Shown one piece after another: positions 1,742 to 44,612 of a stretch of 44,612 bases of DNA (position 1 is its first letter; each line of letters begins with the position of its first letter). The position numbers were made by a program, and so were the translations under genes. A model generated the notes under the pieces. That model made no database searches and was not told the origin of the DNA. It saw only the letters and a list, made by a program, of their open reading frames with translations. This DNA is from Escherichia phage vb_EcoS_bov22_1, in the sequence record NC_073084.1; one strand, written 5' to 3'.

Positions 1742-1821
1742 GTTATCATCTCCCATATTTGGTTGAGTTTTAGTATTGCACCGCTCAATCGAGAATGCAA
1801 CCAATCTATGAGGATTTAGCT

Positions 1822-3438: not shown

Positions 3439-3443
3439 GGCGA

Positions 3444-3466
3444 AGGGGCCGTATGGCCCCTTTTTT
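3444..3466 (+). terminator. rho-independent terminator
   Basis: Hairpin aggggccgtatggcccct plus T6, right after the tail-fibre stop; near-identical to hairpins at 531 and 29161. Confidence 0.6.
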
Positions 3467-4040
3467 AGTTTGAGTTTTCCCAGTCCATTTTGCGCCGAAC
3501 CAGCGGGCTTTCGTAATATTCCTTCCCCTCCACTTCCACTAAGGGCCAGTCGTTAACAATCACGTACGGTTCCGCAATATCCTCAATCACGCCGTGCGCG
3601 CCATGTTGTCCGAACGATACGCCCACCAGAATAACACCGGCAACGCGACGGGTCAGATATTCGCGAGCGCAACGGGCCTCGACCAGTCCCCGACGTATGC
3701 CGCTGGTGGCCTTAACCTCGTAGGTCCAGACGGCATCGATCACATGCTCGCGGAAGTCGGGGCCGGATTTAACCTTGCGCTTGCCGACCATGATAATATC
3801 GCCGCGGTCAATGGTGTTGGCGCTAAACAGGCCGGTACGCATAAGCAAACCTTGCGGGATGCAACTACGCCCGCCCGCCTGCCCCTCAAGGTACATTCCT
3901 GCAAACATTTCGCCCAACACACCGACCAGTCGGCTTTGCTTGCACGCGTCAGACTTTAAGCGCCATTGATCAAACTCGATGCTTGCTATCATTGCCGCCA
4001 GGTGGAATTGTTTACCTGATATTTCATATTCGCCGTACAT
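3465..4040 (-). CDS. hypothetical protein (possible PD-(D/E)xK-type nuclease fold)
   Basis: 191-aa ORF; GAGGA RBS 8 nt upstream of ATG 4040; GDIIMVG ... EVK pattern loosely fits a D ... ExK nuclease core. Confidence 0.5.
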   Translation of the reverse strand: MYGEYEISGKQFHLAAMIASIEFDQWRLKSDACKQSRLVGVLGEMFAGMYLEGQAGGRSCIPQGLLMRTGLFSANTIDRGDIIMVGKRKVKSGPDFREHVIDAVWTYEVKATSGIRRGLVEARCAREYLTRRVAGVILVGVSFGQHGAHGVIEDIAEPYVIVNDWPLVEVEGKEYYESPLVRRKMDWENSN

Positions 4041-9789: not shown

Positions 9790-12080
9790 CACTTCCTGTA
9801 CCTGTACATGATGTCGCCTTCGGCGGCAAGTGGGAAGCCTTTCGCCCAAACAGGCAGGTCGCACATCAGCGCGCACAACTCCTCGGTTGTGTAGTCGTCA
9901 GTATCCGGCACTTCGGTTATCAGTTCATCGTGTACGGACAGTACGATCTCATATCCCGCAGCTTCAACGCCAGGCATGGACCATGCGAGGATATCGCGAC
10001 ACAGCGCCTGTACGATGTTTTCCGTGAGTTTGCCGCCGTAGGTGTACTGGAAGCCCCACTGGCGCGTCGTCTGATTCTCACCCTGATATTTAATGCGGGT
10101 GCTGGTGCGCTTCTTGCCGGTGTCTTCGTCAATCTCGGTCGTGACAGACAGCCCGATGCCTGGGTAGCTCATGATGCGCCCCGACGGCAACTCAATTTTC
10201 AACCACCACCCCGCGGCGTTCGGGTCGTCGCGCTCCTCGTCGAAGGTTGGGTCGTGCTTCGCCTTCGTGCGCACAATCTTGAGCGCTTTCCTACCGTCCG
10301 GGCGAACGTTAGCGCCCGCCCAGTATGCTTTGCCCGGATTGCGGATTGCGCACAACACCGCGTCCTCAAGCTCGGCCCAAAAGGCTACCGTCTTCGGGTG
10401 AGCCTCACGCCACATACGTTTGATCGCGTCACAGGTAAGCCATACGTTTTTCGGCAGTATGTAGGTTGGGCGCTCATCCTTCTTGCCAGGCTTCGGCGGG
10501 CGCTTAGCTTCGTTAATGCGGGCGTACTCATAACCGCGTTTCGCCGCCGCCCAAATGTGATCCGGGAATGTACCCTTCATCACGTCCGCCATAGTGTAAA
10601 GGTCGAGGCCCAGGTTTTTAGCGAACTGCAAGAACGCCGCGACGCCGCCACCATAGCCCAGTCCCAATTCACACGCCTTTCCGATCTGGCGTAAGTCTTT
10701 GCGGTTGGCTTTGATGTAATCCGGGTCAAGGCCGAACATCTTACCGGCAGTCTCGCAGTAAATATCGCGGCCCGCCTTAAACACCATGAGCGCTGTTTTC
10801 TCGCCCGCGATCCAGGCAAGTCCACGCCCTTCCACGTTGGAGTAGTCCGCTACGACAAACTTCTTGCCCTTAGCCGGGATAATGCACCCGCGAACGGTCG
10901 AGGCTGTTAGCTTAGATATGTCATACGCCCAGTGCGCGGTCCCGCGTAACAGGGAATTGATGCCGTTGGTGAGCATGTGCGACCGGACCCAAAAAGCAAC
11001 GTCGCTCTCGCCTTCGCGGCGCTTAATCTTCCCTTCGTGATCGTCGCTATACTCGCCGCGTGCCAGGTTTTGAGGCTGGAAGCCTTTACCCGCCCAGCGC
11101 AGCGTGCGCTTTGCGCCACCATACTGAAGACACCCACGGCGGCGACCGTCGGCAGACAGGCCATTAACGAGCGGATTGTACTTAGTCGATGCCGTTGATG
11201 ACGCGCCGAGGCGCATTTCGATAAGCGCTTTGCCTTCGTCGGGGAAGTCCGGGTCTTCAAGCAGGTCGTTAAGTGTGGATTTCTGCGCGTTGTGGATTGT
11301 GAACGCCGGGGCGATATCACGCAGGATTGGCAGGAAGTCATTGCCTGTCAGTTTACCACCAAATCGCTCCCAGGCTTCCTCCTTCAATTCTTCCTTATGC
11401 GCCTGCACCGCTTTGATCGCGGCGTTCGCCAGGTCAACGTCCACATAGAAGCCGCGGTCGTTGATCAACTGGTCGATAAGCAGGATTTCATCTTCCTTCG
11501 GGGTATTACCCCAGTCCGGTATGCGCCAGTAGACCTCCCGCATCGCGATAATATCCAGCGCGGCATATCGCAGAAATTTGGCCCATTCTTCAGGGTGAGT
11601 CTCGCGAGTGTAGCGGCGTATTTTGTAGGTCTTAGGGGTAGGCTTACAGAATCGTTTGATCAGCGCCTTGCCTGCCTTATCCTTCGCGTGCTCTGCGTCA
11701 ACGCCCAGCACCTGACACTGCATATCGAGGCTACCCGGCAGCGCGTGCCGAAAGGCCATAATCATGGTATCTTCGATCTGGCTTACCGGCAGGTCGATTC
11801 CCCACTTCTCACGGATAACCAGGCGGTCAAACAGGAGGCCGTTAGCCATCACGATTTTTGCTTTCTTGCGGGATACCTGACGGAGCGCCTTGCGCAGTTC
11901 ACGCGGCATTGTTGGGGATTCAGTGGCATCCCATGTCTGCACGCGGCCTTCGTCGATGGCGTAGGTGCAAATCATAATCTCGGTGGTTGGGTGCTCTGCG
12001 TAGGCGTACGCCCCTACTTTCTTCAGGTCAACCCCGCTGAATGTCTCGGTGTCGAGAAACAAGCGTTCGAAGTCTTTCAT
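9789..12080 (-). CDS. family A DNA polymerase with 3'-5' exonuclease domain
   Basis: Exo I LFLDTETFS; pol motif A DYSNVEGR, motif B RQIGKACELGLGYGGG, motif C VHDE; GAGGA RBS before ATG 12080. Confidence 0.9.
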   Translation of the reverse strand: MKDFERLFLDTETFSGVDLKKVGAYAYAEHPTTEIMICTYAIDEGRVQTWDATESPTMPRELRKALRQVSRKKAKIVMANGLLFDRLVIREKWGIDLPVSQIEDTMIMAFRHALPGSLDMQCQVLGVDAEHAKDKAGKALIKRFCKPTPKTYKIRRYTRETHPEEWAKFLRYAALDIIAMREVYWRIPDWGNTPKEDEILLIDQLINDRGFYVDVDLANAAIKAVQAHKEELKEEAWERFGGKLTGNDFLPILRDIAPAFTIHNAQKSTLNDLLEDPDFPDEGKALIEMRLGASSTASTKYNPLVNGLSADGRRRGCLQYGGAKRTLRWAGKGFQPQNLARGEYSDDHEGKIKRREGESDVAFWVRSHMLTNGINSLLRGTAHWAYDISKLTASTVRGCIIPAKGKKFVVADYSNVEGRGLAWIAGEKTALMVFKAGRDIYCETAGKMFGLDPDYIKANRKDLRQIGKACELGLGYGGGVAAFLQFAKNLGLDLYTMADVMKGTFPDHIWAAAKRGYEYARINEAKRPPKPGKKDERPTYILPKNVWLTCDAIKRMWREAHPKTVAFWAELEDAVLCAIRNPGKAYWAGANVRPDGRKALKIVRTKAKHDPTFDEERDDPNAAGWWLKIELPSGRIMSYPGIGLSVTTEIDEDTGKKRTSTRIKYQGENQTTRQWGFQYTYGGKLTENIVQALCRDILAWSMPGVEAAGYEIVLSVHDELITEVPDTDDYTTEELCALMCDLPVWAKGFPLAAEGDIMYRYRK

Positions 12081-12305: not shown

Positions 12306-13088
12306 TTAACGGCGGCGACGTTTACGTGGCGCTTCGTCTTCGTCGTCGTCCTCATCTTCGTCATCGCGTGGCTTACGACGTTTGCGAGGTTTTTCATCTT
12401 CCTCATCGTCGTCGTCATCGCGGCGCTTGGATTTCTTGGACTTGCGCGGCTTGTCATCTTCATCATCGTCATCACGACGTTTTGACTTTTTGGACTTGCG
12501 CGGTGCTTCGTCTTCGTCGTCGTTGTCCAGGTCTTCGTCGGAACATGAAGACCCGCCACCTCCGAAGGCTTCGCCGTCTTCACGGAATCGCAGACCCAGC
12601 AAGCCAGCCCCGAGACCCTTGCCGTTGGTATTGTTCCACGCCCAGATATCAAGGGACACGTTGCAATAACAACCGGAGTAGATCTCCTGGCCGTCAATCT
12701 CGTCGCCGTCGATGGTCAGACCTTGTTCGGTCTGCTTCTCGCCGAGTGACGTTTGAATGATAGGCTGTTTGAACGATTTGGCGTTGATATACAACATGCC
12801 TTCGAATTCTTCGGTCACTTCGTCACGCTCGTCACCGTCGCGGACTGCGCATTCCTTAGAATCCTGGGCGTAGTGGCGGTCCATCCACTTATCGGCATTC
12901 TTCTCGGATTTCAGCTTGTCGGTGAGCACTGCGCGCGCTGCCGCTTCCACTTTGTCCACCTGCGGATCTTCTTTATCCAGAAGAATCACGGCACGGTATG
13001 CCGGTTTTTGTCCATCCTGTTTAGGGGTATCACGTTCCCAGATTTTCAGGAAGCATACGCGCACATTTTTCAGGTTGACTTTAGCCAT
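12306..13088 (-). CDS. single-strand DNA-binding protein (phage type) with long acidic/basic repeat tail
   Basis: ATG 13088 (MAKVNLKN) with GAGGAA RBS; OB-fold-like body ending in DGEAFGGG; C-terminal repeats DDDDEDDKPRKSKKSKRR; usual partner of the RecB-like nuclease and polymerase A in phage replication modules. Confidence 0.6.
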   Translation of the reverse strand: MAKVNLKNVRVCFLKIWERDTPKQDGQKPAYRAVILLDKEDPQVDKVEAAARAVLTDKLKSEKNADKWMDRHYAQDSKECAVRDGDERDEVTEEFEGMLYINAKSFKQPIIQTSLGEKQTEQGLTIDGDEIDGQEIYSGCYCNVSLDIWAWNNTNGKGLGAGLLGLRFREDGEAFGGGGSSCSDEDLDNDDEDEAPRKSKKSKRRDDDDEDDKPRKSKKSKRRDDDDDEEDEKPRKRRKPRDDEDEDDDEDEAPRKRRRR

Positions 13089-15332: not shown

Positions 15333-15851
15333 TTAATCTTCCAGTTCGAAATAGGTTTCGACGATTTCTTTTAACTCTGTGTGGAAGTCTTCGACGTCGT
15401 CATCTTCCAGCTTGGCGATTGATTTGATCTCGAACGATTCCAGCAGGTCGTCGAATTCGTCGTTCGCGTCGTCGTCATCACCCCCGGCAATAATAGCGGC
15501 ATACTGTTTGATCTCGTCGCGCATCTCTGCCAGCGGATCGGCATCTTTCTTACCTTTGCCTTTCGCCGGGGCTTTTTTACCCTTCGCAGGTTTTTCGTCT
15601 TCGGCTTCTTCATCGTCGTCATCTTCTACGACTTCTTTTTTGGACTTACCTTTCGCCGGGGCTTTTTTAGATTTAGCCGGTTTTTCGTCTTCGGCTTCAT
15701 CGTCGCCATCTTCGACAACTTCTTTTTTCGCCTTAGACGGCTTCTTGTCTTCCTGTTTACCAACGGCAGCGCCAACGGTTTCATAATGCTTTGCAATGGT
15801 TTCCAGTGCTACTACGCCGCGAGTGATCAGGTTTACGATTTGCTCAAACAT
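15333..15851 (-). CDS. highly acidic protein with Lys-rich tandem repeats; first gene of the leftward early operon (candidate host-takeover or DNA-mimic protein)
   Basis: ATG 15851 with GGAGATATACC RBS (upstream part of the track ORF has no RBS); two ~30-aa repeats KKEVVEDxDDEAEDEKPAKxKKAPAKGKxKK; acidic C-terminus. Confidence 0.65.
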   Translation of the reverse strand: MFEQIVNLITRGVVALETIAKHYETVGAAVGKQEDKKPSKAKKEVVEDGDDEAEDEKPAKSKKAPAKGKSKKEVVEDDDDEEAEDEKPAKGKKAPAKGKGKKDADPLAEMRDEIKQYAAIIAGGDDDDANDEFDDLLESFEIKSIAKLEDDDVEDFHTELKEIVETYFELED

Positions 15852-16254: not shown

Positions 16255-16584
16255 ATGAATGTAAACGACGCAATCGAAATGTTAACGAAGACTGTTTGCA
16301 GTGAGACAAGCCGGTCATGGGCATACACCGATGCCGTAGGGGCTGTGTTATTTGAAATCGAACGACTGCGCAGTATCGAAAAAGAATTGCGCGCCAGGCT
16401 GGAACTACTCAACGGTACAGCAGCAAGCAAGCTGCAAAAACACAATGAAGAAATGGAAGAATACAAAAAGCAGGTTATCCGTTTGCGCGCCGAGGGCAAA
16501 TCCTGGGCGATGATTGCTGAGTTGACCGGAATTAATCAGAGCACAGTTCGCTCCTGGGTACGCAATAATAAAACTTCTAAGTAA
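16255..16584 (+). CDS. helix-turn-helix DNA-binding protein (putative transcriptional regulator)
   Basis: 109 aa; C-terminal SWAMIAELTGINQSTVRSWV HTH; N-terminal coiled coil; first gene of the rightward block. Confidence 0.65.
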   Translation: MNVNDAIEMLTKTVCSETSRSWAYTDAVGAVLFEIERLRSIEKELRARLELLNGTAASKLQKHNEEMEEYKKQVIRLRAEGKSWAMIAELTGINQSTVRSWVRNNKTSK

Positions 16585-16594
16585 GGCCGCGGCA

Positions 16595-18859
16595 ATGAGC
16601 TTAATTAAATTCGCTGTAACAAAACCCGCTAAAAAAGGCGAAAAAGCCAGGGCGGAAAACTTCCAGATGACGACCGATGAGTTTTTCGAATTTATCAAAG
16701 ATGCGAAAGAAATATCCTCGGTGCATATCAACAAGACGGAAGATAAAGCCGAGTATGCGCGCCGCAAGCGTAAGGCCGATGGCATCGTGGCGTATACCAG
16801 TGACGGATTGCGTCGTAAGACCAGTGCGGTGGACCGCTCGATCCTGTTCTTTGATATTGACCGCACCGACACCCGCACCCTGCGCCGCTGCCGTAAGGCG
16901 TTCATCGACGCGGGTCTGGAACACGTATTTCACACCACCACCGGCGACCGCCACCCGCTGAAGGGCGGCACGCGTTGCGCCCGTTTCCTGGTGCTCACTG
17001 ACAAGCCTGTACCGGCTGAAGACCTGGGCCGCGTACAATATGCACTATTACACCAACTGGGTCTGTCAGATGTGGACTTCGACGATTGCACGAAAGACAC
17101 AAACCGCCTGATGTACCTGCCACACCAGCAGTCTGTTATTAAGTGCCACTATGGCAAGCGCGCCAATGTGCGTCGTCTACTCCGTCGGGCGGACAAGCTG
17201 GGGGTGGAAAAAGAGGAAGTACGCCGCGAGCTTACCCAGGGCGACGACGCAGTGGCAGACGGCATTCTGGACTGGTGCTTCCAGGCCGGATTCGAGGAGT
17301 TATCTTCTGGTCGTGGTTATGAAGTGCCGTGTCCTAACGAACATCTGCACAGCGGCGAAGGGTCGACGGCTATCATGGTCAAGGATGGTGAGATCCGTTT
17401 CAAGTGTATGCACACTGGCAACGAGTGTTGCTCGGAACTGAACAGACACCAGCACCTGGCGCTACGTCTTATCGGGATCCCGGACCACCTGAACGTCGAA
17501 CCGCACAACATGTCACGTAAGCAAATCGCCGCCATCCTCCCAGGACTGGACGACGAGGAAGTGGAATCATGCTATGCGCATATCGTTGATGCGGTCGGAG
17601 ACGGCGACGAGTACGGCGTATGTACCGACGCTGACCTGGATAACGAACCGGTCGCACTGTTCAGTAAGCACGACCCTATCATCGAGGGGTTGATTAACTT
17701 TAAATCGACCTGGTATATGGCTGGCGAGTCTAACATCGGTAAATCGTTCTACGTGCTGGGCCAAATGGGCGCTGTTGCCGCGGGTATTCCGTTCGGCGGT
17801 GCGAAGGTCGTCCAGTCTCATTGCTTCTATTTCGACGCGGAAGGTGGCGAAGCCTCCAACCAGCGTAAGGAAGCATTGCAGATCAAATATGAGCACGACC
17901 TGGACAAGCTGCACATTATCGATCTGCAATCACGCGGCTGGGATATCACCAGCAAGTCCGGCTTGCGTGAAGTTATCAGCTTCATCAACCGCACCGCTAA
18001 CGGCGAACCGGTTGGCCTGGTGGCGTTCGACTCACTCAACCAGACGGTTGCGTTGCGGTCCGCCGATGCCAAACCGTTCGACGAGAACAACGCCAGCGAT
18101 ATGGGCGAAGTGGTCAAAGCGCTGAAGGCCATCGCGGAAAATACAGGCGGCAGCGCGGGCGTCATCCACCACCCGGCGAAGGGTGCAAACGGCAGCAGAT
18201 CTCCCCGTGGGTCCGGTGCGCTGCATGGTGCTGTCGATTCTGCGTTCTTCCTGGAGCAACCAGACGACAACCAGCCCGGACAACTGAACCTGTATCACGA
18301 GAAGGCACGTAACGGCATCAAGCAAGCGCCGCGCGGCTTCGTCCTGCTCAAGTGCAAGGTGAAGGTGGATCTCCGCAAGTCCGAGGCGTTCGAGGCACAC
18401 CAGTCCACCAGCACAGGGCCGGACTTCGGCGATGTAGTTGCCGGTTGGGACGTCAAGCCAATTGCATCCACGCCACGCGACGAGACTCTTTACCTCGTAC
18501 CGGTCGCCCTGGCACCGTTCGCCATCGAACAGGCGAAGGCCGCGGGCAAGGCCGCAGTTAAGGAGGAGAACGCCGCAGGACCGCGCAACGAAAAAGAGAA
18601 AGTGCTTTATGCGGCACTGGAAAAACTGATGGAAGATAACCCGGACCATACCGGATTCAGTAAATCGGCAATTGTACGCCAGGCGGGATTGGCAAAAGGC
18701 GGCACATCGACGAAGGCAATCGACGATATGGTCGAGCGCGGCGTGCTCGGTTTTTATACAGATCCGCACACCGGGGCCATCTATGGGTCGTCAAATATCG
18801 TCATCAAAACGAATATACCCATCACGCTTTCGGCGACCGATGACGACCTGAAAGATTAA
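16595..18859 (+). CDS. primase-helicase (N-terminal primase-like domain with Cys/His cluster, C-terminal RecA-like ATPase)
   Basis: 754 aa; Walker A GESNIGKS and RepA/DnaB-like ATPase region; CPNEHLH ... CMHTGNECC zinc-binding-like cluster. Confidence 0.75.
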   Translation: MSLIKFAVTKPAKKGEKARAENFQMTTDEFFEFIKDAKEISSVHINKTEDKAEYARRKRKADGIVAYTSDGLRRKTSAVDRSILFFDIDRTDTRTLRRCRKAFIDAGLEHVFHTTTGDRHPLKGGTRCARFLVLTDKPVPAEDLGRVQYALLHQLGLSDVDFDDCTKDTNRLMYLPHQQSVIKCHYGKRANVRRLLRRADKLGVEKEEVRRELTQGDDAVADGILDWCFQAGFEELSSGRGYEVPCPNEHLHSGEGSTAIMVKDGEIRFKCMHTGNECCSELNRHQHLALRLIGIPDHLNVEPHNMSRKQIAAILPGLDDEEVESCYAHIVDAVGDGDEYGVCTDADLDNEPVALFSKHDPIIEGLINFKSTWYMAGESNIGKSFYVLGQMGAVAAGIPFGGAKVVQSHCFYFDAEGGEASNQRKEALQIKYEHDLDKLHIIDLQSRGWDITSKSGLREVISFINRTANGEPVGLVAFDSLNQTVALRSADAKPFDENNASDMGEVVKALKAIAENTGGSAGVIHHPAKGANGSRSPRGSGALHGAVDSAFFLEQPDDNQPGQLNLYHEKARNGIKQAPRGFVLLKCKVKVDLRKSEAFEAHQSTSTGPDFGDVVAGWDVKPIASTPRDETLYLVPVALAPFAIEQAKAAGKAAVKEENAAGPRNEKEKVLYAALEKLMEDNPDHTGFSKSAIVRQAGLAKGGTSTKAIDDMVERGVLGFYTDPHTGAIYGSSNIVIKTNIPITLSATDDDLKD

Positions 18860-18904: not shown

Positions 18905-18933
18905 TATTGGTTGCCGTGTAGTGTAGATATAAT
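18905..18933 (+). promoter_or_regulatory. candidate promoter reading into the iteron/hairpin element
   Basis: Perfect -10 TATAAT at 18928-18933 with TTGGTT/ATTGGT 15-17 nt upstream. Confidence 0.35.
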
Positions 18934-18954
18934 GAATAGTTATGCATTGAAACT

Positions 18955-19126
18955 GCATAAACTAAGCGGGACAAAAAGCGGGACAAACAAGGGGCGGGAC
19001 AAAGCGGGACAGCACCCCCGTCCCGCCCCGGATGACGCGGCTTCCAGAGGAGCGGGACAGCGGGACAGCACCCCAGTCTTTCAGACTAGACGGGGGTCAA
19101 CGGCCCCCCTCGTCTGAGACTGAATA
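18955..19126 (+). repeat. structured repeat element, copy A: GCGGGACA iterons plus GC-rich hairpins
   Basis: Six direct GCGGGACA-like copies and one inverted; 10-bp stem GGGGCGGGAC/GTCCCGCCCC; second hairpin AGACGGGGG ... CCCCCCTCGTCT; nearly identical to 36128-36301. Confidence 0.7.
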
Positions 19127-19282
19127 AAATCCGGGGATTGCAAAACACACGGCAGCATGATGCGAAGTGCGGTCGCGGATGAACTAGGCAACCAATGCTA
19201 GTAGCATTATGCTGAGTGAAAAATGCGGTTTGCAGTTGCAGCAGATAGCGATCAACTTTTTCATGCGCGTTATTAATATTGG

Positions 19283-22713: not shown

Positions 22714-23856
22714 ATGCACCCGCAAACTAAAATTACCGATGAGCAATTGATCGCAGAAATTCAGGCAGGGACTACGGTTAAAGATATTGCGAAGAAATAC
22801 GGGATTGCCCTACGCAATGTTTATATGCGGAAAGCCCGCCTGTCGAAAAAAGGCATTGGACACGGTAACGATGCCGTAATACGCAAGCGCGTTGCCGATG
22901 GGTTTGGGGTTAAGCGCGTATCGGCCCTGGTGCGCGGCAATGGCGAAGAGGTCATGTCGTGGGTCATCACTGAGCAGGACAAAGAGCGCCAACTCGAAGC
23001 CATGCGCGCTGTTGTCGAGGGTATGAACAGCGAAATCACACCGGCAGCGCCAGTAAAAGCCCCGCCAGTACCGATCCAGGCGCTCGACTTGCTCAACCTG
23101 TACACCGTGTCCGACTTCCACCTGGGCATGTTGGCATGGGGCGAGGAGACTGGCGAAGACTGGGATATGGCGATTGCCGAAGACCTGTTCTACCGCTGGT
23201 TTGTCGAAGCCTTCGCACGCGCACCAGACGCAGGCACTGCCGTAATCAATATCCTCGGTGATATGGCGCACTTTGATAGCCTCGATGCCGTCACTCCCGC
23301 CAGCGGGCACGTACTGGACGCGGATACCCGCTACCAGAAGCTGGTCCGCTACATGATTCGCATGGTGCGTAACGTGGTGGAACTGGCGCTGCAAAAACAC
23401 CACAAAGTCAAACTGCTAATCGTCCAGGGGAATCATGACGAGTCTGGCATGATTTGGCTGGCTGAAATGTTCAATACCCTGTACGAGAACGAGCCGCGCG
23501 TCGATGTGGATACGTCCCCGGACGTCTACAAAATGGTGCAGCACGGTAAGACCACACTATTTTTCCACCACGGGCACAAAGCGCGATTCGATGTTATCGA
23601 GCAGGTTATGATCGCTAAATTCAGACAGGCGTTCGGGTCGAGCGAATACAGCTACGCGCACGTAGGCCATTTGCATCACCAGAAGATTGTTGAATCCCGC
23701 AACATGATTGTTGAACAGCACAGGACGCTCGCAGCGAAAGACGCCTACGCCAGTCGTGGCGGTTGGATGTCAGGTCGCAGCGCAAACGTCATCACCTATA
23801 GCGCCAACTACGGCGAAGTAGCGCGCTTAACCATTAGCCCGGAAATGTTGAAATGA
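22714..23856 (+). CDS. fusion of an N-terminal helix-turn-helix domain with an Mre11/SbcD-type calcineurin-like metallophosphoesterase
   Basis: N-terminal TTVKDIAKKYGIALRNVYMRKARL HTH; phosphoesterase motifs DFHLG, GDMAHFD, GNHDE, HHGH, GHLHH in canonical order. Confidence 0.7.
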   Translation: MHPQTKITDEQLIAEIQAGTTVKDIAKKYGIALRNVYMRKARLSKKGIGHGNDAVIRKRVADGFGVKRVSALVRGNGEEVMSWVITEQDKERQLEAMRAVVEGMNSEITPAAPVKAPPVPIQALDLLNLYTVSDFHLGMLAWGEETGEDWDMAIAEDLFYRWFVEAFARAPDAGTAVINILGDMAHFDSLDAVTPASGHVLDADTRYQKLVRYMIRMVRNVVELALQKHHKVKLLIVQGNHDESGMIWLAEMFNTLYENEPRVDVDTSPDVYKMVQHGKTTLFFHHGHKARFDVIEQVMIAKFRQAFGSSEYSYAHVGHLHHQKIVESRNMIVEQHRTLAAKDAYASRGGWMSGRSANVITYSANYGEVARLTISPEMLK

Positions 23857-26129: not shown

Positions 26130-27650
26130 ATGACCGTTAACGTTGACAACCAGCACCCGCTCTATGCGCGCATTGCGCCAGAGTGGAAGATGATCCGCGA
26201 TTGTGTAGCAGGGGAGCGCGCCGTGAAGGCGTGCGGCCCTTTGTACCTGCCTCATCCCGCCAGTGGCGACAATACTGACCCGAAAGCACGGGCGCGGTAT
26301 AAGGCGTACAAGCAACGCGCGGTATTCCTGAACGCCACCGCCCGCACACTAAACGCGCTGTTAGGCGTCGCCTTTGCAAAACCTGTAAGTCTGGACCTTT
26401 CCGGGGTGATGGCTGACCTGATTGACGACGTAGACGGCAGCGGTATGCCATTGCCGCAACTTCTGCGCGGTGCTATGTCGGAAGTTCTGCAATCGGGACG
26501 CGCGGGCTTTATGGTGGACTACGACCGCCAGGCTAACTTTGATGAACTGGGTAACGTAGTGCCACAGACAGCCGCCGAGATGGCGGCACACCGACCGCTT
26601 ATCCGCCTGTATACGGCAGAGCAGATCATCAACTGGCGGCAGACCCACGGCGTCGATACGCTAATTGTGCTGAAGGAAACGGACGAAATCAGCACCGAAG
26701 ACCCTGACGATTTCGCAAACCACGAAGTAACAATCTGGACCGAGCTTCGCATGATTGACGGCAAGGCACACGCCCGCCGCTGGTTTTACAACGCGGACAC
26801 GTCCGAAGTGAAGATGGACTTGCCGCGAGGCTTCACCAGAACCGATCTTGTGCCGTTGGTGGATGCTTCCGGTAATGCGCTTACGCAACTACCGTTTTGC
26901 TGGTGCGGTGCGGTGGACAACAACGCAACGCCTGACGCCGCTCCGCTGGCGGATATCGCATCCATCAACATTAAGCACTACAACGCCGAAGCGGACGTCG
27001 CCGAGATCGCGCACATCGTGGGTCAGCCTACCCTGGTTGCGACGGGCTTGACTCAATCATGGGCTGACAAGAACCTGAAGGGAGGCATTGCCCTCGGTGC
27101 GACTAAGGGCGTTATCCTGGGCCAGAACATGGACGCTAAACTGATCCAGGCGGAGGAGCGCAACTTGTCGGTTGCACTGTGTGAGCGTCGCGAATTGCAA
27201 ATGGCTAAACTTGGCGCGGCCCTGGTCGAGAAGGGGACCGCACCTAAGACGGCAACCGAGGCGGCCTACGATGCGCAGACTGATAACAGTATCCTGTCGC
27301 TTATTGCCGGTAACGTTGAGAAGGCTTTCAACCGTGCGCTGCAAATCGTCCAACTCTTCACCGGTGACACCGCCGACCAGCGTGTGACGCTGAATAAGTT
27401 CTACACCGAGATCACGGTTGATGCGCAGCTTATGACCGCGATGATGTCGGGTGTGCAGACGGGTACGGTCCGCCTGGCTGATTTCATCAAGTGGATGATG
27501 GCGCAGGGTGTCATCGACGACTCGCAAACCGTCGAGCAGGTTGAAGACGAATTGCGGAATCAGAATCCATTGCCTCAAATGTCCCCTGATGCGGTAGAAT
27601 CTACCGAAGAAGACCCGGACAAGGTAGCGGACAATGGCGAAGACAATTAA
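26130..27650 (+). CDS. portal protein
   Basis: 506 aa immediately after terL, AAGGAAA RBS; acidic C-terminus; call rests on position and size. Confidence 0.7.
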   Translation: MTVNVDNQHPLYARIAPEWKMIRDCVAGERAVKACGPLYLPHPASGDNTDPKARARYKAYKQRAVFLNATARTLNALLGVAFAKPVSLDLSGVMADLIDDVDGSGMPLPQLLRGAMSEVLQSGRAGFMVDYDRQANFDELGNVVPQTAAEMAAHRPLIRLYTAEQIINWRQTHGVDTLIVLKETDEISTEDPDDFANHEVTIWTELRMIDGKAHARRWFYNADTSEVKMDLPRGFTRTDLVPLVDASGNALTQLPFCWCGAVDNNATPDAAPLADIASINIKHYNAEADVAEIAHIVGQPTLVATGLTQSWADKNLKGGIALGATKGVILGQNMDAKLIQAEERNLSVALCERRELQMAKLGAALVEKGTAPKTATEAAYDAQTDNSILSLIAGNVEKAFNRALQIVQLFTGDTADQRVTLNKFYTEITVDAQLMTAMMSGVQTGTVRLADFIKWMMAQGVIDDSQTVEQVEDELRNQNPLPQMSPDAVESTEEDPDKVADNGEDN

Positions 27651-28737
27651 TCAACATTTGGCGGATCGAATGATTCGCCGTCACATCTTCACCCAGCGCC
27701 TGAGCAATGATCAGGCGCGGAGGGTGCTGGCTATGTGGGAGAAGTTCCGGCCCACTTTACTTGGTAAGCTGACCGAGTTACTTGATGGCAAAAAGTCCAT
27801 GAGCAACAAGGCACTTACCACACTGTTAACTCAACTCGACAAGACCGTCAAAACGGAACTACGCGCCGAGTTTAAAGTGCTGGCGGAGAGCCTTCAGGAG
27901 TTCGCCGACGCCGAGGCTAATTATCTAGCAGACACACTAACGGCAGCGATCCAGCCCGCTGTCGCCGTACCGGCTGTTGAAGTAGTTGGCGTTGTTACCG
28001 GCGCGCAGATTGCAGCGACGGCAATGAAAAACCCGTTCCAGGGTAATACTATGATGCAATGGCCTGATTCCCTTTCCGAGTGGACCAGGACGCAGATCGG
28101 CAATCAGGTGCGCGCCGGATTCATCCAGGGAAAGCCAACGATGGAAATTATCGCGGACGTGAGGCGCGCGCTAGGCGGTCGTAGTGCGCAAGCCATCTCA
28201 AGCGTTGTTAAGTCCGCAGTCAACCACTATGCGGCGACCGCCCGCGAACTAATGGTAAAAGCAAATGACGATATTCTCGAAGGTCGCCAATGGTTATCTA
28301 CATTGGACACGCATACTTCTCCCATGTGCCAGCTACGCGATCGCCTGTTTTATCCGGTTGATGTTACTCCCGATACGAAAGGGAAGCGCGGCGGGAAAGT
28401 GGTGGCTGGATCACAATATGGCGCTGGTCCGGGCAAGCTACATTATTGCTGCCGTTCGACGGAGACGTGGAAAGTCAAAGGTATGGAAGATTGGCCCAGT
28501 GGTAAGCGTCCGGCACTGAAGGCTGACGCAGGCAGATTGCTGAGTGAGCAGGTAGACGCGCAGACTGATTTCTTCTCATGGGTGCAGCGCCAGCCGCGCC
28601 ATATCCTGGAAGAATTATATGGAGTGCAACGCGCCGACCAGATTATGCGCGGCGTGAAAGTGCCGAAGATGTTCACCGATTCTGGTGAACTGATGACTAT
28701 TGCACAGCTTAAAAACCGGGGGTTATGGCGTGATTAA
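27634..28737 (+). CDS. head morphogenesis protein (Mu F / SPP1 gp7-like minor head protein)
   Basis: LDTHTSPMCQ ... HYCCRS Cys motifs typical of the family; position after portal. Confidence 0.7.
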   Translation: MAKTINQHLADRMIRRHIFTQRLSNDQARRVLAMWEKFRPTLLGKLTELLDGKKSMSNKALTTLLTQLDKTVKTELRAEFKVLAESLQEFADAEANYLADTLTAAIQPAVAVPAVEVVGVVTGAQIAATAMKNPFQGNTMMQWPDSLSEWTRTQIGNQVRAGFIQGKPTMEIIADVRRALGGRSAQAISSVVKSAVNHYAATARELMVKANDDILEGRQWLSTLDTHTSPMCQLRDRLFYPVDVTPDTKGKRGGKVVAGSQYGAGPGKLHYCCRSTETWKVKGMEDWPSGKRPALKADAGRLLSEQVDAQTDFFSWVQRQPRHILEELYGVQRADQIMRGVKVPKMFTDSGELMTIAQLKNRGLWRD

Positions 28738-29059: not shown

Positions 29060-29171
29060 CCCGTCCGCGGACCCCGACGAAGATTTGATGATTGACGTGA
29101 AAAATATGGAATGCGGGGCGAAGCTAAGGGCGCAGGTGCTGGAGTTGCAGCAAATAATTAAGGGGCCGTAA
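28941..29171 (+). CDS. o-spanin (Rz1-like lipoprotein)
   Basis: ATG 28941 with AAGAGG RBS; lipobox LMLSAC; Pro-rich mature region; embedded in the 3' part of the i-spanin gene. Confidence 0.6.
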   Translation: MLRALTALIVVLMLSACGSSNAPLMPLTESALRPPCKFDNPSADPDEDLMIDVKNMECGAKLRAQVLELQQIIKGP

Positions 29172-29184
29172 TGGCCCCTTTTTC
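29161..29184. terminator. bidirectional rho-independent terminator
   Basis: aggggccgtaatggcccct plus T-run, lying between convergent genes (ends 29171 and 29186). Confidence 0.6.
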
Positions 29185-32918: not shown

Positions 32919-33089
32919 ATGAATCCTGCATTACTGGCGGCTATTATCGCCGCAAATACTAAGCACCAACCAGAACCAGAGCCGGAACCAGAACCAGAGC
33001 CGGAACCAGAGCCGGAACCAGAACCAGAGCCGGAACCAGAACCAGAGCCGGAGCCACCGGTACAGGAGGATGCTAATGGCGGGCTTTAA
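32919..33089 (+). CDS. small protein with (Pro-Glu)n dipeptide repeat
   Basis: ATG 32919 with GGGGGTGA RBS; MNPALLAAIIAANTKHQ followed by about 17 PE repeats; overlaps the next gene start. Confidence 0.45.
   Translation: MNPALLAAIIAANTKHQPEPEPEPEPEPEPEPEPEPEPEPEPEPEPPVQEDANGGL
32968..33056 (+). repeat. tandem hexanucleotide-type repeat (ccagaa/ccagag/ccggaa units) encoding the PE tract
   Basis: Direct reading: gaaccagagccggaaccagaaccagagccg repeated. Confidence 0.7.
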
Positions 33090-35263: not shown

Positions 35264-35287
35264 GGGGCCAGCACGGCCCCTTTTTTA
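35264..35287 (+). terminator. rho-independent terminator
   Basis: ggggccagcacggcccc followed by T6. Confidence 0.65.
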
Positions 35288-35302
35288 TTGGAGAATACTA
35301 CA

Positions 35303-35665
35303 ATGGCTAAAGCACCACTCTTTACACTTGACCCTAAGCCGACCTTTAAGCTGCCGATTGAGATCCCGCGCCCTGGAGAGAACGAACCCGGCAAGATGAC
35401 GTTTACCGTACGCCACCGCCCGATCGACGAATTTTCGCAAACCATGCAGGACACCGAACGAAAGCTATCGGAATATGACGACAATGACCCGGACGGCTTT
35501 AACGTTATGGTCGAGGCCATCATGCACGTCGCGGAAGGCTGGAATCTGCCAGACGAATTTAACGCGGAGAACGTCCGCCGCCTGGTGGTCAACTACCCAC
35601 GCGCGTTCGGTGTGTTCCACACGTCGTACTATCTCGAACTGATGGGATTGCGTGAAAAAAACTAA
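35303..35665 (+). CDS. tail assembly chaperone (gpG-like)
   Basis: ATG 35303 with GGAG RBS; position between major tail and tape-measure genes; ends just after a slippery heptamer. Confidence 0.65.
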   Translation: MAKAPLFTLDPKPTFKLPIEIPRPGENEPGKMTFTVRHRPIDEFSQTMQDTERKLSEYDDNDPDGFNVMVEAIMHVAEGWNLPDEFNAENVRRLVVNYPRAFGVFHTSYYLELMGLREKN

Positions 35666-35979
35666 TTGAGGCGGCGCGACGCTTTTATGGCCCGCCGCCA
35701 CCCTCCGAAGATTTAGCCGCAAGTTTATGGGGCGCGGCCCCCGAAGATGTTTGTCCGCCTGTTGCGCTATGGCCTGACAACGCGAAGATAGTCGCGGTCT
35801 TCACAGATTGCGCCACGCAATGGCGCACCGGATTTGGTGGCGCATACGGCATCGACTACGGCGTGCTGGAGTGGTTATTTAAGATGCACGGTATCGAAAA
35901 CGAACAGCGCGCGTTTAAAGATATCAAGCTAATGGAACGAATCGCGCTTGATGAGATGGCGCAGCAGAACCCCGCATAA
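35303..35979 (+). CDS. tail assembly chaperone frameshift product (gpG-T-like) via -1 programmed frameshift
   Basis: Slippery A AAA AAC at 35656-35662; the -1 frame is open from there to TAA 35977-35979 with no plausible start of its own. Confidence 0.5.
35656..35662 (+). promoter_or_regulatory. -1 ribosomal frameshift slippery heptamer A AAA AAC
   Basis: X XXY YYZ pattern in the zero frame, two codons before the chaperone stop. Confidence 0.5.
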
Positions 35980-35982
35980 TGA

Positions 35983-36120
35983 AGCGGGACAAAACGGGAT
36001 GTCCCGTTTTGTCCCACCCCACAAATGTGCATATCTAATCACTTCCATTGCATAATCTAAAAGCGGGACAATCGGGACGTCCCGTTTTGTCCCACCCCAC
36101 AAATGTGCATACCTATTCGG
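35983..36120 (+). repeat. two tandem ~79-bp units, each with a 30-bp GGGAC-based palindrome next to a promoter-like TTGTCC-17 nt-TATCTA/TACCTA
   Basis: Perfect inverted repeat gggacaaaacggga-tg-tcccgttttgtccc at 35986-36015; degenerate copy 36065-36093; each followed by accccacaaatgtgcata. Confidence 0.6.
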
Positions 36121-36127
36121 ATTTCGT

Positions 36128-36301
36128 GCATAAACTAAGCGGGACAAAAAGCGGGACAAACAAGGTGCGGGACAAAGCGGGACAGCACCCCCGTCCCAGC
36201 CAGTGCTGCCGCGGTTTTTAGCCGATCGGGACAGGCGGGACAAACCCCAGTCTTTCAGACTAGACGGGGGTCAATGGCCCCCCTCGTCTGAGACTGCATA
36301 A
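36128..36301 (+). repeat. structured repeat element, copy B (GCGGGACA iterons plus hairpins)
   Basis: About 70 nt then about 60 nt near-identical to 18955-19126, with a divergent central segment; in the second hairpin the single C/T difference falls in the loop. Confidence 0.7.
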
Positions 36302-36364
36302 GGTTTGTTTTAAATTCGCTGATACAATATCAATCGGCAACTGCATAAAAAAGGGGACTGCATA

Positions 36365-41781: not shown

Positions 41782-44612
41782 CGATTGTCTATGATGTCAC
41801 AGGCCATAAAGGCGGCGGTGGCAAACAGCACACCCCACAGGAGACACCAGATAGCCTGCATTCGCTGGCTAAAATCCGCATCTTGCTTGCGCTGGGAGAA
41901 GGGGAGTTCGAAGGTATTCCAGACCCTAACGAATTACGGCGGCGCGTATATCTGGACGGAACACCGATCCAGAATGCAGACCTGTCTGAAAACTTCCCAG
42001 GCGCGCGTGTGGAGTTCCGCCCCGGAACACAGCACCAGGATGTGATCCACGGATTTTCAGCGGTGGAAAGTGAGCAATCTGTCGGCGTAAAACTGGAAAA
42101 CGGCACGCCGTGGGTGCGCCAGATTAACGACACCAGTTTGGACGCCGTGCGCATTCGCATCGGCATTCCGGCCCTGTACACAAACGAAGATAATGGCGAC
42201 CTGGTGGGCGGGCGCATCGACTATAAGATCGTTGTGTATACGGATAACGCGGACCCGCGTGAGTTCAGATTCGCCGCCGTTGGTAAAACAATGTCGCTGT
42301 ATGAGCGCGACCACCGCATCGAATTACCTCCGAACGTTAACACCGGCTGGCGCGTGGAGGTGCACCGCATAACGGCAGACTCCACATCGGCGAAAGTGGT
42401 TAATGATATCCGGGTGCAGTCCATCACTGAGATTATTGACGCCCGCCTGCGTTACCCGCTAACCGCGCTGTTGTTTGTGGAGTTCGACGCCAAAGCGTTC
42501 CAGAACATCCCGCGCGTGTCCATCAAGTGCAAAGGCCGCAAAGTTCTAATACCGAACAACTACGATCCGATTAATCATACCTATTCCGGGGACTGGGACG
42601 GCACGTTTAAACGCGCATGGACGGATAACCCTGCGTGGCACTGGTACGATATTTGTATTACTGAGCGCTTCGGCCTCGGTCGGCGTATCAAACCGCAAAT
42701 GTTAAACCGGTACGCGCTCTACCAGATTGCGCAGCGCTGCGATCAGTTGGTCAGCGACGGCAACGGCGGTAGAGAAATCCGCTTTAAGAACGATATGTAC
42801 ATCCAGTCGCAGACAGACGCCTGGACCGTGCTTAAGGATTTAGCAGCTATCTTTGCCGGTATGACCTGGTGGGGAAACCAGATGTTGAATATCGTAAGTG
42901 ACCAGCCGGTCGCAGCGGTATCGCACACTATCACCAACGCCTCGGTTATTGATGGCAGATTCGACTACGCGTCCGGTAGCCAGAAAACTCGGTATTCCAC
43001 ATTCGCGGTAGCATACGGCAACCCGAAGAACCACTATGAAGATGCCATTGCTACGGGTCAGCGTGTCGAACTGGTACGCCGCCATAAGATTAACCGTCTG
43101 GATATAACGGCGATCGGCTGTACGCGTGAGTCAGAAGCGCAACGACGTGGGCACTGGGCGCTAATCTCCAACCAGCTTGACCAGCAAGTTAGCTTTAAGG
43201 TTGGCATGGAGGGACTTTTCTTTATTCCGGGTAGCGTAGTCGCGATCGCCGATACAAACATTTCTGGCGGCTTCGAGACACGCGGCGGTCGCCTGTTGTC
43301 GGACCCTGGCACGCGGACGGTGCTGAACACAGACAGCGAAATCACGTTCCGCCCCGGTGATAAATTCCTGGTGCGCACCGATAGCGGAAATGTGGAGACT
43401 CGCGAGATTGCCAGCGTCAACGGCAACAAGGTTACGCTAAAAACCGCACTGGATGCCGACCCGATCCCAGATCAACCGTTTTGCGTGGATGGCAACGATA
43501 TCCAGTTGCAGAAATTCCGCATCACCGACCTGGAATATGACGACTCTACCAGCACTTTCTCGGTGCGCGGGATCGAGTACAACGATAGTAAATACGATGC
43601 CGTTGATAATGGCGCTCGCCTTGATCCGGGCATCTTCACGCAAGTTCCTGATGGCGTAATGAAGGGGCCGGAATCCGTGACCATCACTCCGTCGCAGATT
43701 TCATCGCAAGGCCAGCTAATCACCAACGTGGATATTGTATTCCCGCCGGTGAAGGACGCCGTTGTGTATGAAATCCAGTGGCGACGCACCAGCTTGCAGA
43801 ATATGGAAATCCAGTGGGGTAACGACTGGGTGAATATTCCGCGCACGGCGTCGAATGGCGCGCATATCCCAAACGTGTTTTCCGGTAACTATCAGGCACG
43901 CGTTCGCGCGATCGGTATGGGCGAGATTTCATCACCGTGGGTGTCGTCCGCTATCACGCCGGTGGAAGGTCGTCTCGGAGGTCTTAACGCACCTATCATC
44001 ACCAACGCGATTTCGGGCCTTCATCAAATTTTGTGGAAGTGGAACCACAACAACGCCGCGACGGATATCTCTTACACCGAGCTTGAAGTGCGCAAGACTG
44101 GTGAAACGGAATGGAAGTTTCTTACAAACGTCCCATATCCGGGGGCGGAGTATGCCCAAACGTCGCTGGAGTTCGGGATCTATCAGCAGTTGCGCACCCG
44201 CGTAGCGGATAAAATCGGCAACCTGTCGGACTGGTCTGCCCCATTTGAAGGCCAGGTGAGTGACAAAGTTGACGAGTACATGAAGGGGCTTGACGACGAG
44301 TTCTTGACTTCTGAGGATGGTAAACGCTTCCAGGAAGCGATCGACACCATTCCGCAAGGCATTTATGAAGCCATGCTCACCGACGCACAGCAATTGTTTA
44401 ACGCCCGCACCGAGTACAAGGGTATTTATGCGGAAATCTCGGTCGCGTATAACGTGGCGGCGGACGCCCACAAGGCGGTCGCTCAACTGGAGACGTTGAT
44501 CGGCACGAGACTGGACGATGCTGAAGCGGCGATCCACACGCTGCAGACGGCGCAGAGTACGCACGAACAAGCGTTCGCCCAGTACCAACAAACTGTTGCC
44601 GCTAAGTTCGGG
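41778..44612 (+). CDS. tail-tip host-specificity protein J-like (3' end beyond window, apparently continuing at base 3)
   Basis: ATG 41778 overlapping the upstream TGA; open frame of 945 codons to the window end with no stop; the six-frame track omitted it because it has no stop inside the window. Confidence 0.8.
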   Translation, partial: MTIVYDVTGHKGGGGKQHTPQETPDSLHSLAKIRILLALGEGEFEGIPDPNELRRRVYLDGTPIQNADLSENFPGARVEFRPGTQHQDVIHGFSAVESEQSVGVKLENGTPWVRQINDTSLDAVRIRIGIPALYTNEDNGDLVGGRIDYKIVVYTDNADPREFRFAAVGKTMSLYERDHRIELPPNVNTGWRVEVHRITADSTSAKVVNDIRVQSITEIIDARLRYPLTALLFVEFDAKAFQNIPRVSIKCKGRKVLIPNNYDPINHTYSGDWDGTFKRAWTDNPAWHWYDICITERFGLGRRIKPQMLNRYALYQIAQRCDQLVSDGNGGREIRFKNDMYIQSQTDAWTVLKDLAAIFAGMTWWGNQMLNIVSDQPVAAVSHTITNASVIDGRFDYASGSQKTRYSTFAVAYGNPKNHYEDAIATGQRVELVRRHKINRLDITAIGCTRESEAQRRGHWALISNQLDQQVSFKVGMEGLFFIPGSVVAIADTNISGGFETRGGRLLSDPGTRTVLNTDSEITFRPGDKFLVRTDSGNVETREIASVNGNKVTLKTALDADPIPDQPFCVDGNDIQLQKFRITDLEYDDSTSTFSVRGIEYNDSKYDAVDNGARLDPGIFTQVPDGVMKGPESVTITPSQISSQGQLITNVDIVFPPVKDAVVYEIQWRRTSLQNMEIQWGNDWVNIPRTASNGAHIPNVFSGNYQARVRAIGMGEISSPWVSSAITPVEGRLGGLNAPIITNAISGLHQILWKWNHNNAATDISYTELEVRKTGETEWKFLTNVPYPGAEYAQTSLEFGIYQQLRTRVADKIGNLSDWSAPFEGQVSDKVDEYMKGLDDEFLTSEDGKRFQEAIDTIPQGIYEAMLTDAQQLFNARTEYKGIYAEISVAYNVAADAHKAVAQLETLIGTRLDDAEAAIHTLQTAQSTHEQAFAQYQQTVAAKFG

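Follow-up and report, generated by a model that had tools for sequence, protein, structure and literature searches.

Introduction

In lambdoid phages, the DNA-binding domains of the initiators and the repeats that they recognise are exchanged together, which results in distinct replicon specificity types. P4 has a second cis site, crr, composed of long direct repeats that carry the same iterons as ori. The alpha protein of P4 binds iterons, unwinds and primes (PMC4234260). RSF1010 divides such tasks: RepC is the iteron-binding protein, RepA does the unwinding, and priming at the ssiA/ssiB hairpins falls to RepB' (PMC4234260; PMC8567376). The origin of pRN1 is a stem-loop just 3' of its prim/pol-helicase-winged-helix gene and works when moved; similar arrangements have been noted in some phages (PMC4234260). 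Here we describe a 385-bp non-coding island (region A) of Escherichia phage vb_EcoS_bov22_1 (NC_073084.1; its 44,612 nucleotides are referred to as the window), located between the tail chaperone and tape-measure genes, and its partial counterpart (region B) behind the gene of the primase-helicase gp48. The phage is a Dhillonvirus; vb_EcoS_bov11C2 and three sibling isolates match it at 100% identity over the query.

A first-pass annotation had read the island primarily as an operator-controlled late promoter. The comparative data presented below indicate that it is most likely a cis element for replication and not a late promoter. With moderate confidence, and guided by analogy to the systems above, we would assign region B as a replication origin and region A as its duplicated and expanded copy, acting as a second origin or as a cis element of the crr type. 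The feature is real and conserved, its earlier annotation is superficial, and the observation itself is not new: in the record of Sodalis phage SO-1 (GQ502199), a "region A" in the gap and a "region B" after the helicase/primase gene are marked as mutually similar repeat_region features, with no function shown in the visible part of the note, and the records of HK578 and WF5505 label the first palindrome as a terminator. A literature search returned no searchable paper on these repeats or regions and no mapped replication origin for a Dhillonvirus or its relatives.

Repeat architecture of region A

The elements of the island are listed in order of position.

35980-36364, plus strand: region A, 385-bp non-coding island reaching from the tail chaperone G/T to the tape-measure gene
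35986-36015, unstranded: palindrome 1, perfect 14-bp inverted repeat with a 2-bp centre; half-sites in the order -> -> <- <-
36026-36055, plus strand: TGCATA/TGCATAA pair 1, 21-bp spacing (36028, 36049)
36065-36093, unstranded: palindrome 2, degenerate copy; GGGAC at 36065 and 36074, GTCCC at 36079 and 36089
36106-36133, plus strand: TGCATA/TGCATAA pair 2, 21-bp spacing (36106, 36127); its second member opens the duplicated module
36127-36301, plus strand: module copy A, 175 bp, homologous to 18954-19127
36248-36296, unstranded: long imperfect palindrome or hairpin of ~50 bp
36297-36364, plus strand: nearly invariant 3' part, 68 bp

The 385 bp contain 15 GGGAC/GTCCC half-sites, compared to a genome mean of 1.4 per kb, and their spacings of 9-16 bp correspond to about one helical turn. 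Such clustering far above chance is as expected of iterons. The core repeat, GCGGGACA, is present 15 times in the window versus 2.0 expected copies (0/100 shuffles reach 15), and 13 of the 15 fall in regions A and B. The two tandem units, given as ~79 bp in the first-pass annotation, have a period of 78 and share 83% identity over 69 aligned nucleotides (35992-36060 and 36070-36138). Each unit consists of four half-sites in the order -> -> <- <- at 9-10 bp spacing and, behind these, a TGCATA...TGCATAA pair with a spacing of exactly 21 bp. In palindrome 1, GGGAC (35986) and GGGAT (35996) are followed by GTCCC at 36001 and 36011, with 10 bp within each pair; among relatives, the GGGAC cores are kept and the spacers differ, and HK578 and WF5505 have a third inverted copy. 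The TGCATA of pair 1 is likewise invariant among relatives, with variable adjacent bases. Both palindromes, the perfect and the degenerate one, had been described in the first-pass annotation, and all sequence features listed there were recovered to within about one base.

Module copy A starts with four direct copies of GCGGGACA (36141, 36153, 36169, 36179), followed by an inverted GTCCC (36193), a GCTGCCG spacer, two further direct copies (36228, 36237) and the hairpin. The latter reads, in order, CAGTCT, TTC, AGACT, AGACGGGGG, TCAATGG, CCCCCC, TCGTCT and GAGACTG, and its 5' arm has two possible pairing partners, the proximal AGACT and the distal one. The 3' part holds an extended -10-like TGATACAAT (36320-36328; one mismatch), two copies of ACTGCATAA, and the ribosome-binding site AAGGGG before the tape-measure ATG. 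Its CGGCAAC at 36335-36341 matches the ACACGGCAGCA found after the module in region B and in other lineages.

The 385-bp gap reported by the first-pass annotation is present and holds no conserved reading frame, as single-base indels among close relatives break every candidate open reading frame (ORF). Upstream, the chaperone G ORF (35303-35665) belongs to Phage_TAC_4 and has a slippery A-run near its end; downstream, the tape-measure gene starts with an ATG at 36365 and matches TMP_2 and Tape_meas_lam_C. The slippery run, GTGAAAAAAAC (window 35640-35665), ends the G ORF, and the -1 frame continues for another 105 codons to 35979, with the stop codon of this T extension at 35977-35979. Slippery run and -1 extension are the expected G/GT programmed frameshift; the T part is given as a separate small ORF in several GenBank records.

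Duplication in region B and conservation

Two elements of region B are needed for the comparison.

18931-18948, plus strand: AATGAATAGTTATGCATT, ARG-box-like palindrome at the 5' edge of module B
18954-19127, plus strand: module copy B, the likely primary copy, 95 bp 3' of the gp48 stop codon

The duplication of 36128-36301 at 18955-19126, as seen in the first-pass annotation, is confirmed with slightly adjusted borders (36127-36301 and 18954-19127). Identity is 99% over the 71 nt of 36127-36197 versus 18954-19024 and 79% over the 113 nt of 36189-36301 versus 19015-19127. The two regions are co-oriented and 17.2 kb apart. Module B comprises six direct and one inverted GGGAC as well as a hairpin at 19074-19122, and its position is kept in all lineages that carry the module.

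The first-pass annotation had suggested looking for the island in related phages, and it was found in about 157 phage records, nearly all of them Dhillonvirus, at 80-100% identity. Segment identities were computed against five other Dhillonviruses. The hairpin reached 98.0%, above the flanking genes, followed by the G gene (95.5%), the T extension (94.7%), the 3' part (94.1%), the first 536 bp of the tape-measure gene (88.9%), the module repeats (88.4%) and, as the least conserved segment, the 78-bp units (82.0%). The nearly invariant 3' part was scored as invariant in 7/7 Dhillonvirus sequences. Where conservation is lower, the cores GGGAC and TGCATA persist while spacers and copy numbers differ. 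Retained cores with free spacers are the signature of protein-binding repeats, and the alignment suggests such a role here.

A selfish or neutral duplicated repeat, related to miniature inverted-repeat transposable elements (MITE-like) or left over from recombination and functionless at the tail position, would be in line with the 82% identity of the 78-bp units and with a second copy that lies elsewhere or is absent in related lineages (see below). It is the least probable of the explanations considered here, given that the same site is occupied in about 157 genomes with cores kept and spacers free, that hairpin and 3' part exceed the flanking coding DNA in conservation, and that E. coli genomes and plasmids yielded no copies of the island. 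The only good plasmid match to gp48 is a phage-sized record.

The module in other phage lineages

Homologues of gp48 were traced in Edwardsiella phage eiAU (L010), Klebsiella phage 37P2 (L008), Salmonella phage TS6, and 42 IMG/VR loci. In all but one lineage, a non-coding module of the same layout begins a few to about 100 bp past the stop codon of the homologous primase-helicase gene, and the groups bearing it include Dhillonvirus, Eiauvirus, Guernseyvirinae-like phages, and many metagenomic contigs. Its 5' half has one or two TGAATAGTTATGCA boxes, three or four direct and one or two inverted repeats, and a TTGCCGA or GCTGCCG spacer. The 3' half continues with two direct repeats, the long hairpin, TTATTCA, ACACGGCAGCA, and a good sigma-70 promoter of the next operon. 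Within +/-10 kb, the module is the only repeat cluster (35 IMG/VR loci plus eiAU, 37P2 and TS6). The repeat itself varies with lineage, being GGGACAA in Dhillonvirus and CGGACAA, CCGACAA, GGGATAA, GGGGAGAA, GGGATGA, ACTCGCAA or CGCCCCG elsewhere. Several of these are one base apart, as would be expected for diverging specificities of one homologous DNA-binding domain.

Distant second copies carry the repeat of their own lineage in Dhillonvirus (17.2 kb), 37P2 (9.4 kb) and eiAU (about 16 kb), which is suggestive of a trans-acting, lineage-specific reader and not of adjacency only. In 37P2 the second copy is located between a spanin gene and a head gene, outside the tail operon, and the T extension abuts the tape-measure gene directly. 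The first-pass annotation had named such adjacency of chaperone and tape-measure genes in relatives as evidence that would speak against its proposal; 37P2 comes close to this situation. TS6, phiEap-2 and AH01 have a single module copy and no second one. In eiAU, region B has a repeat block in common with region A, and the hairpin was not found there. Searching the phage collection with the L041-type module returned the single copies in phiEap-2 and AH01, and the L039-type module gave no match in the same collection. Among the matches listed, an IMG/VR scan for CGGACAA pairs as potential second copies returned mostly chance hits.

The two module copies of 37P2 span 1573-1855 and 10891-11207, with ACTCGCAA/TTGCGAGT as its own repeat. 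In eiAU, the stretches concerned are 42121-43015 plus 1-221, and 26895-27791. Its large gap between T and the tape-measure gene has an ORF on the reverse strand, numerous TGCAACCAAC motifs, repeats of CGCCCCG and a GACGGGGG...CCCCTCGTC hairpin; some 60 bp of this gap are found again behind the helicase-primase gene, in a gap of 900 bp. The eiAU record begins and ends inside this region with a 16-bp overlap, probably an assembly join.

The primase-helicase and the reader of the repeats

16595-18859, plus strand: gp48, primase-helicase of 754 aa ("replicative helicase-primase", phrog_3228), the proposed repeat-binding initiator

Residues about 1-335 of gp48 adopt an AEP primase fold with a Zn ribbon. 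Residues 357-531 form a RepA-like helicase with a match to AAA_25, for which RSF1010 RepA is the only PDB sequence hit, and a weak one. A C-terminal winged helix is predicted for residues about 666-737 (nt 18590-18805). The last ~100 residues are the most variable part of the helicase-primase, and a protein search with the C-terminal 150 aa alone returned one partial match.

Mosaic pairs allow the enzyme core and the C-terminus to be viewed separately. L033 and L041 share 95.7% identity in the core and 42.5% in the C-terminus, and L046 and L044 share 97.7% and 54.2%, respectively; in both pairs the repeat class is different. L039 and L051, with 78.1% identity in the core and 84.0% in the C-terminus, have the same repeat class. 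At the beginning of helix 3 and in the wing, the amino acids are consistent inside each repeat class and change from one class to another. By this comparison, the repeat class tracks the predicted gp48-type C-terminal winged helix and not the enzyme core. As in iteron systems, the repeats lie next to a gene for a candidate initiator with a DNA-binding domain, judged by position and the predicted winged helix, and repeat and DNA-binding domain covary among relatives, with adjacency as a partial confound that the distant second copies with their lineage-specific repeats mitigate.

Two other readers had been put forward in the first-pass annotation, and neither proved the best candidate. The small upstream helix-turn-helix (HTH) protein gp47 (109 aa; 16255-16584) was rejected, as the proteins at this position are non-homologous across lineages sharing a repeat class: a Cro-like HTH occurs in some lineages, an unrelated HTH_23 in Dhillonvirus, and a non-HTH protein in others with the same class. 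The product of 22714-23856 is a metallophosphoesterase/exonuclease.

Promoter and terminator signals

The first-pass model rested on two hexamer pairs, both of which are literally present (TTGTCC 36009-36014, 17 nt, TATCTA 36032-37; TTGTCC 36088-93, 17 nt, TACCTA 36111-16). The proposed -10 elements are devoid of the critical T at position 6 and read TATTTA, TACTTA or TAGTTA in relatives (seven Dhillonviruses). The proposed -35 TTGTCC is the flank of a GTCCC repeat and is replaced by CTGTCC, CGGTCC or CTGGCA. With hexamers this weak and variable, and with no promoter within the island in a sigma-70 consensus scan, an operator-controlled late promoter at this place is not supported.

Transcriptional control may be framed more broadly, with the GGGAC arrays as operator or enhancer sites of the gp48 winged helix, or of another phage protein, for a promoter just downstream (for region A the promoter of the tape-measure gene, for region B those of middle genes), which includes the operator-over-promoter model. 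The module indeed lies upstream of a good sigma-70 promoter in every lineage, for instance TTGACA-17-TATTGT in L039, the extended -10 TGATACAAT at the end of region A is invariant, and palindromic half-site arrays resemble operators. Moreover, with a terminator at 35264-35290 behind the major tail gene, a promoter for re-starting transcription would be useful. We nevertheless consider this explanation unlikely. Besides the poor conservation of the hexamers, the repeats are positioned 80-250 bp upstream of the candidate promoters and not over them, the second copy is moved or absent in relatives and not tied to tail genes, and specificity tracks the C-terminus of the replication protein itself. 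Furthermore, the arrays occupy two sites only in the genome, whereas TTGGTTGC with its 20 copies marks most intergenic promoter regions. The tape-measure gene probably has its own small promoter with the extended -10 at 36320-36328, at the 3' edge of the island.

The motif TTGGTTGC (ATTGGTTGCA) is found 20 times in the genome versus 1.8 expected copies, none of them in region A, and is probably the phage's own promoter or regulator motif. Sites include 1797, 4658/4670, 6568/6585, 9527, 13145/13161, 16056, 18872/18907, 19188, 19279/19310, 20039, 22520/22543, 30334/30348 and 41040. With few exceptions the copies fall between genes; they often form pairs separated by 12-35 bp, and most point the same way as the gene that follows. 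TTGCAT-17-TATATT arises from the copy at 19279. The copy at 18907 points into module B and is followed after 15 nt by a TATAAT (18928-18933). The motif is also abundant in eiAU regions A and B.

On the plus strand, the site at 35264-35290 upstream of the island is the only canonical intrinsic terminator, and within the island only weak minus-strand matches were found. Four near-identical GC hairpins with a T-run (GGGGCC-N4-5-GGCCCC; 524-554, 3437-3467, 29162-29184, 35265-35287) make up an intrinsic terminator family, and its last member separates the major tail gene from the chaperone gene, a short way upstream of the island.

The hairpin

The region A hairpin folds as DNA with z = -4.6, and 0/200 shuffles were as stable. 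Twelve sequence-distinct hairpins at the same module position are all long and imperfect, and 10/12 beat at least 195 of 200 dinucleotide shuffles (z -2.2 to -5.4). Between lineages the arms covary, read as 5' arm / proximal partner / distal second copy of the partner: AGTCT/AGACT/AGACT, TCCTC/GAGGA/GAGGA, TCATC/GATGA/GATGA, and TCTCC/GGAGA/GGAGA. The two hairpins of 37P2 differ by compensating changes.

A fold that is kept while its sequence diverges could reflect a functional mRNA structure, perhaps with the palindromes taking part, that sets tape-measure expression, be it as an antiterminator of the put type, by attenuating or terminating transcription, or through transcript processing or stability. 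In line with this, both copies are co-oriented with transcription and sit in transcribed contexts, the hairpin is locally the most conserved segment (98%), the alternative pairing (a / a' / a') recalls a switch, and annotators of HK578 and WF5505 chose the name terminator for the first palindrome. Conversely, no U-tract follows the hairpins on the plus strand, and a Rfam scan of the whole window gave no match for region A or B at E <= 1. By minimum free energy the minus strand seemed favoured, the complement folding as well or better, yet the counts of G.U-type pairs are symmetric (17 on the plus versus 15 on the minus strand), and neither strand is singled out. These data fit a DNA palindrome at least as well as an RNA, and the pair counts and complement folding may fit a double-stranded DNA palindrome better than a strand-specific RNA. 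An mRNA element would also leave the covariation of lineage-specific repeats with a DNA-binding domain unexplained, and we rate it as rather improbable. Both alternatives raised in the first-pass annotation can be judged at this point: the cis replication site is best supported, and the transcribed RNA structure shows neither a Rfam match nor a strand bias.

Conserved boxes beside the repeats

Lineages that differ in their repeats retain the TGCATA(A)/TGAATAGTTATGCA motif, so that its reader is probably a conserved factor. It resembles both the ARG box and the DnaA box. The window has just two matches to the ARG-box consensus; one of them, 36026-36043, contains the TATCTA proposed as -10. The modules of Guernseyvirinae-like phages have two ARG-box-like boxes 21 bp apart. 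In Kagunavirus Golestan (L066; 377-850 and 4129-4249), the region upstream of the helicase-primase operon carries (GAGT)n and CGAAA repeats, and divergent promoters next to a Cro-like gene have GTGAATAGT motifs in their spacers. Given the latter location, a phage repressor is an equally good candidate as ArgR for the TGAATAGT box.

The boxes bring up other DNA-level cis sites, i.e. a pac site, a centromere-like or partition site, or a cer-like recombination accessory site using host ArgR. ARG-box-like sequences in both regions, together with the 21-bp-spaced pairs in related modules, would suit the last of these. A further point in favour is that the centromeres of phage N15 are dispersed repeat sites inside late operons. 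Still, these phages are virulent, genes for partition or for a recombinase were not observed in them, gp47 is no more than an HTH protein of 109 aa, and ARG-box-like sequences are not above chance genome-wide, leaving such a site with a small chance of being correct. Dhillonviruses package by a headful mechanism, with genomes oriented from terS (PMC9022532); a cos or pac site was rejected on the basis of this report.

A candidate replication origin

Several observations weigh against region B as an origin and region A as its derivative. Fold matches of the predicted gp48 winged helix are generic, with Foldseek E-values of 5e-3 or weaker. The C-terminal coding region adjoins region B, and some of the covariation could stem from the exchange of one DNA segment. 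No module was found at this position in Jerseyvirus and Kagunavirus, whose helicase-primases are about 28-33% identical, nor after the gene in a metagenomic lineage (L034-L037, L040, L042). With the second copy absent from TS6, phiEap-2 and AH01, region A cannot be essential to this replicon type. The module is always just upstream of a promoter and probably transcribed, leaving room for a transcriptional or RNA role. AT-rich stretches beside the repeats are short (30-bp windows with 70-73% AT at 36030, 36300 and 18930). The only two ARG-consensus matches of the window are distributed one per region, with a genome-wide count of ARG-box-like sequences not above chance, and the one-mismatch DnaA boxes (three in region A, none in region B) do not exceed chance genome-wide either. 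The GC skew minimum at about 16 kb coincides with the point of divergent transcription, and the skew only mirrors gene orientation and not an origin.

With these reservations, the replication-origin assignment can be cast as a mechanism; binding, unwinding, priming and origin firing are what we infer by analogy. The cassette would consist of direct and inverted lineage-specific short repeats (GCGGGACA in this phage) at a spacing of about one helical turn, beside a ~50-bp imperfect palindrome. The winged helix of gp48 would bind the repeats and gp48 would oligomerise, upon which its helicase may open the neighbouring DNA and allow the palindrome to extrude, and the primase domain would then start DNA synthesis at the palindrome. 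Region A may serve as a second origin co-oriented with region B, or as a cis enhancer looping to region B like P4 crr.

A wider proposal is that a family of virulent enterobacterial siphoviruses (Dhillonvirus, Eiauvirus and Guernseyvirinae-like phages) employs one IncQ-like "three-in-one" initiator of AEP primase, RepA helicase and winged helix, with a swappable cassette of winged helix, repeats and hairpin setting its specificity, and that in some lineages a second, co-oriented copy in the late operon couples replication, by two sites or by looping, to late gene dosage or expression. Taken as a whole, this is speculative and we consider it doubtful.

If the origin assignment is right, it provides candidate origin positions along with a candidate origin-recognition domain whose specificity could be read from sequence, and it would explain the odd gap in an otherwise canonical tail operon. 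It would further supply about eight natural repeat/winged-helix pairs, useful for compatible or orthogonal phage replicons and for predicting interference upon co-infection. Dhillonvirus-type phages are widely used in phage-therapy and defence-system work, e.g. in the BASEL collection. Should the origin assignment be wrong, the element would still represent a strongly conserved, lineage-specific and putatively protein-binding array.

Other repeats in the genome

Repeats unrelated to the module were noted elsewhere in the window. At 32950-33074, six or seven tandem 18-bp units (AACCAGAACCAGAGCCGG, with a 6-bp sub-periodicity) would read as Pro-Glu repeats. They fall into an apparent gap between genes ending at 32917 and starting at 33076 and could be an unannotated coding extension or a linker. 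Long GAC/GAA-rich degenerate tandem repeats in minus-strand genes (12322-12540 and 15539-15718) encode acidic, Asp/Glu-rich tracts of low complexity in two proteins of the early region. Within the 547-aa ORF 1795-3438, a stretch of 37 nt is repeated exactly and in direct orientation (2399-2435 and 2441-2477, 42 nt apart), which amounts to an in-frame duplication of 14 residues.

Comparison with known systems

P4 is similar in that alpha and gp48 each combine a primase, a helicase and a C-terminal winged helix (predicted in gp48), and in that short repeats are found in both orientations. Both systems have two separated cis regions with the same repeats, one of them with long tandem direct repeats (the 78-bp units in region A, crr in P4). 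However, alpha unites a Toprim primase with an SF3 helicase whereas gp48 unites an AEP primase with a RepA/AAA_25-type helicase, and P4 is devoid of a conserved long hairpin beside its iterons.

With respect to RSF1010, gp48 shows fold or family resemblance to the RepA helicase and to the RepB'-type AEP primase, and a hairpin, where priming might take place, lies beside the repeats. In RSF1010, three separate proteins (RepB', RepA, RepC) carry the activities that gp48 would unite in one fused polypeptide. RepC does not amount to a simple C-terminal winged helix, and the module hairpin has no recognisable sequence similarity to ssiA/ssiB. pRN1 shares the stem-loop 3' of the initiator gene, its structure kept rather than its sequence, as in region B and its homologues, with region A as a relocated version. 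Its ORF904 likewise has an AEP primase and a C-terminal winged helix, and a movable origin would allow a second copy elsewhere. Conversely, pRN1 is an archaeal plasmid without iterons, and its helicase is of the SF3 and not the AAA_25 type.

The joint exchange of ori and O domains among lambdoid phages parallels the mosaic pairs, in which the gp48 C-terminus changes with the repeat class. In lambda, however, ori is located inside the O gene, and O is neither a helicase nor a primase, recruiting host DnaB via P. What is unusual in Dhillonvirus and its relatives is the fused AEP-RepA-winged-helix protein, the iteron-plus-hairpin layout, the cassette-like swapping of specificity, and the second copy in the tail operon.

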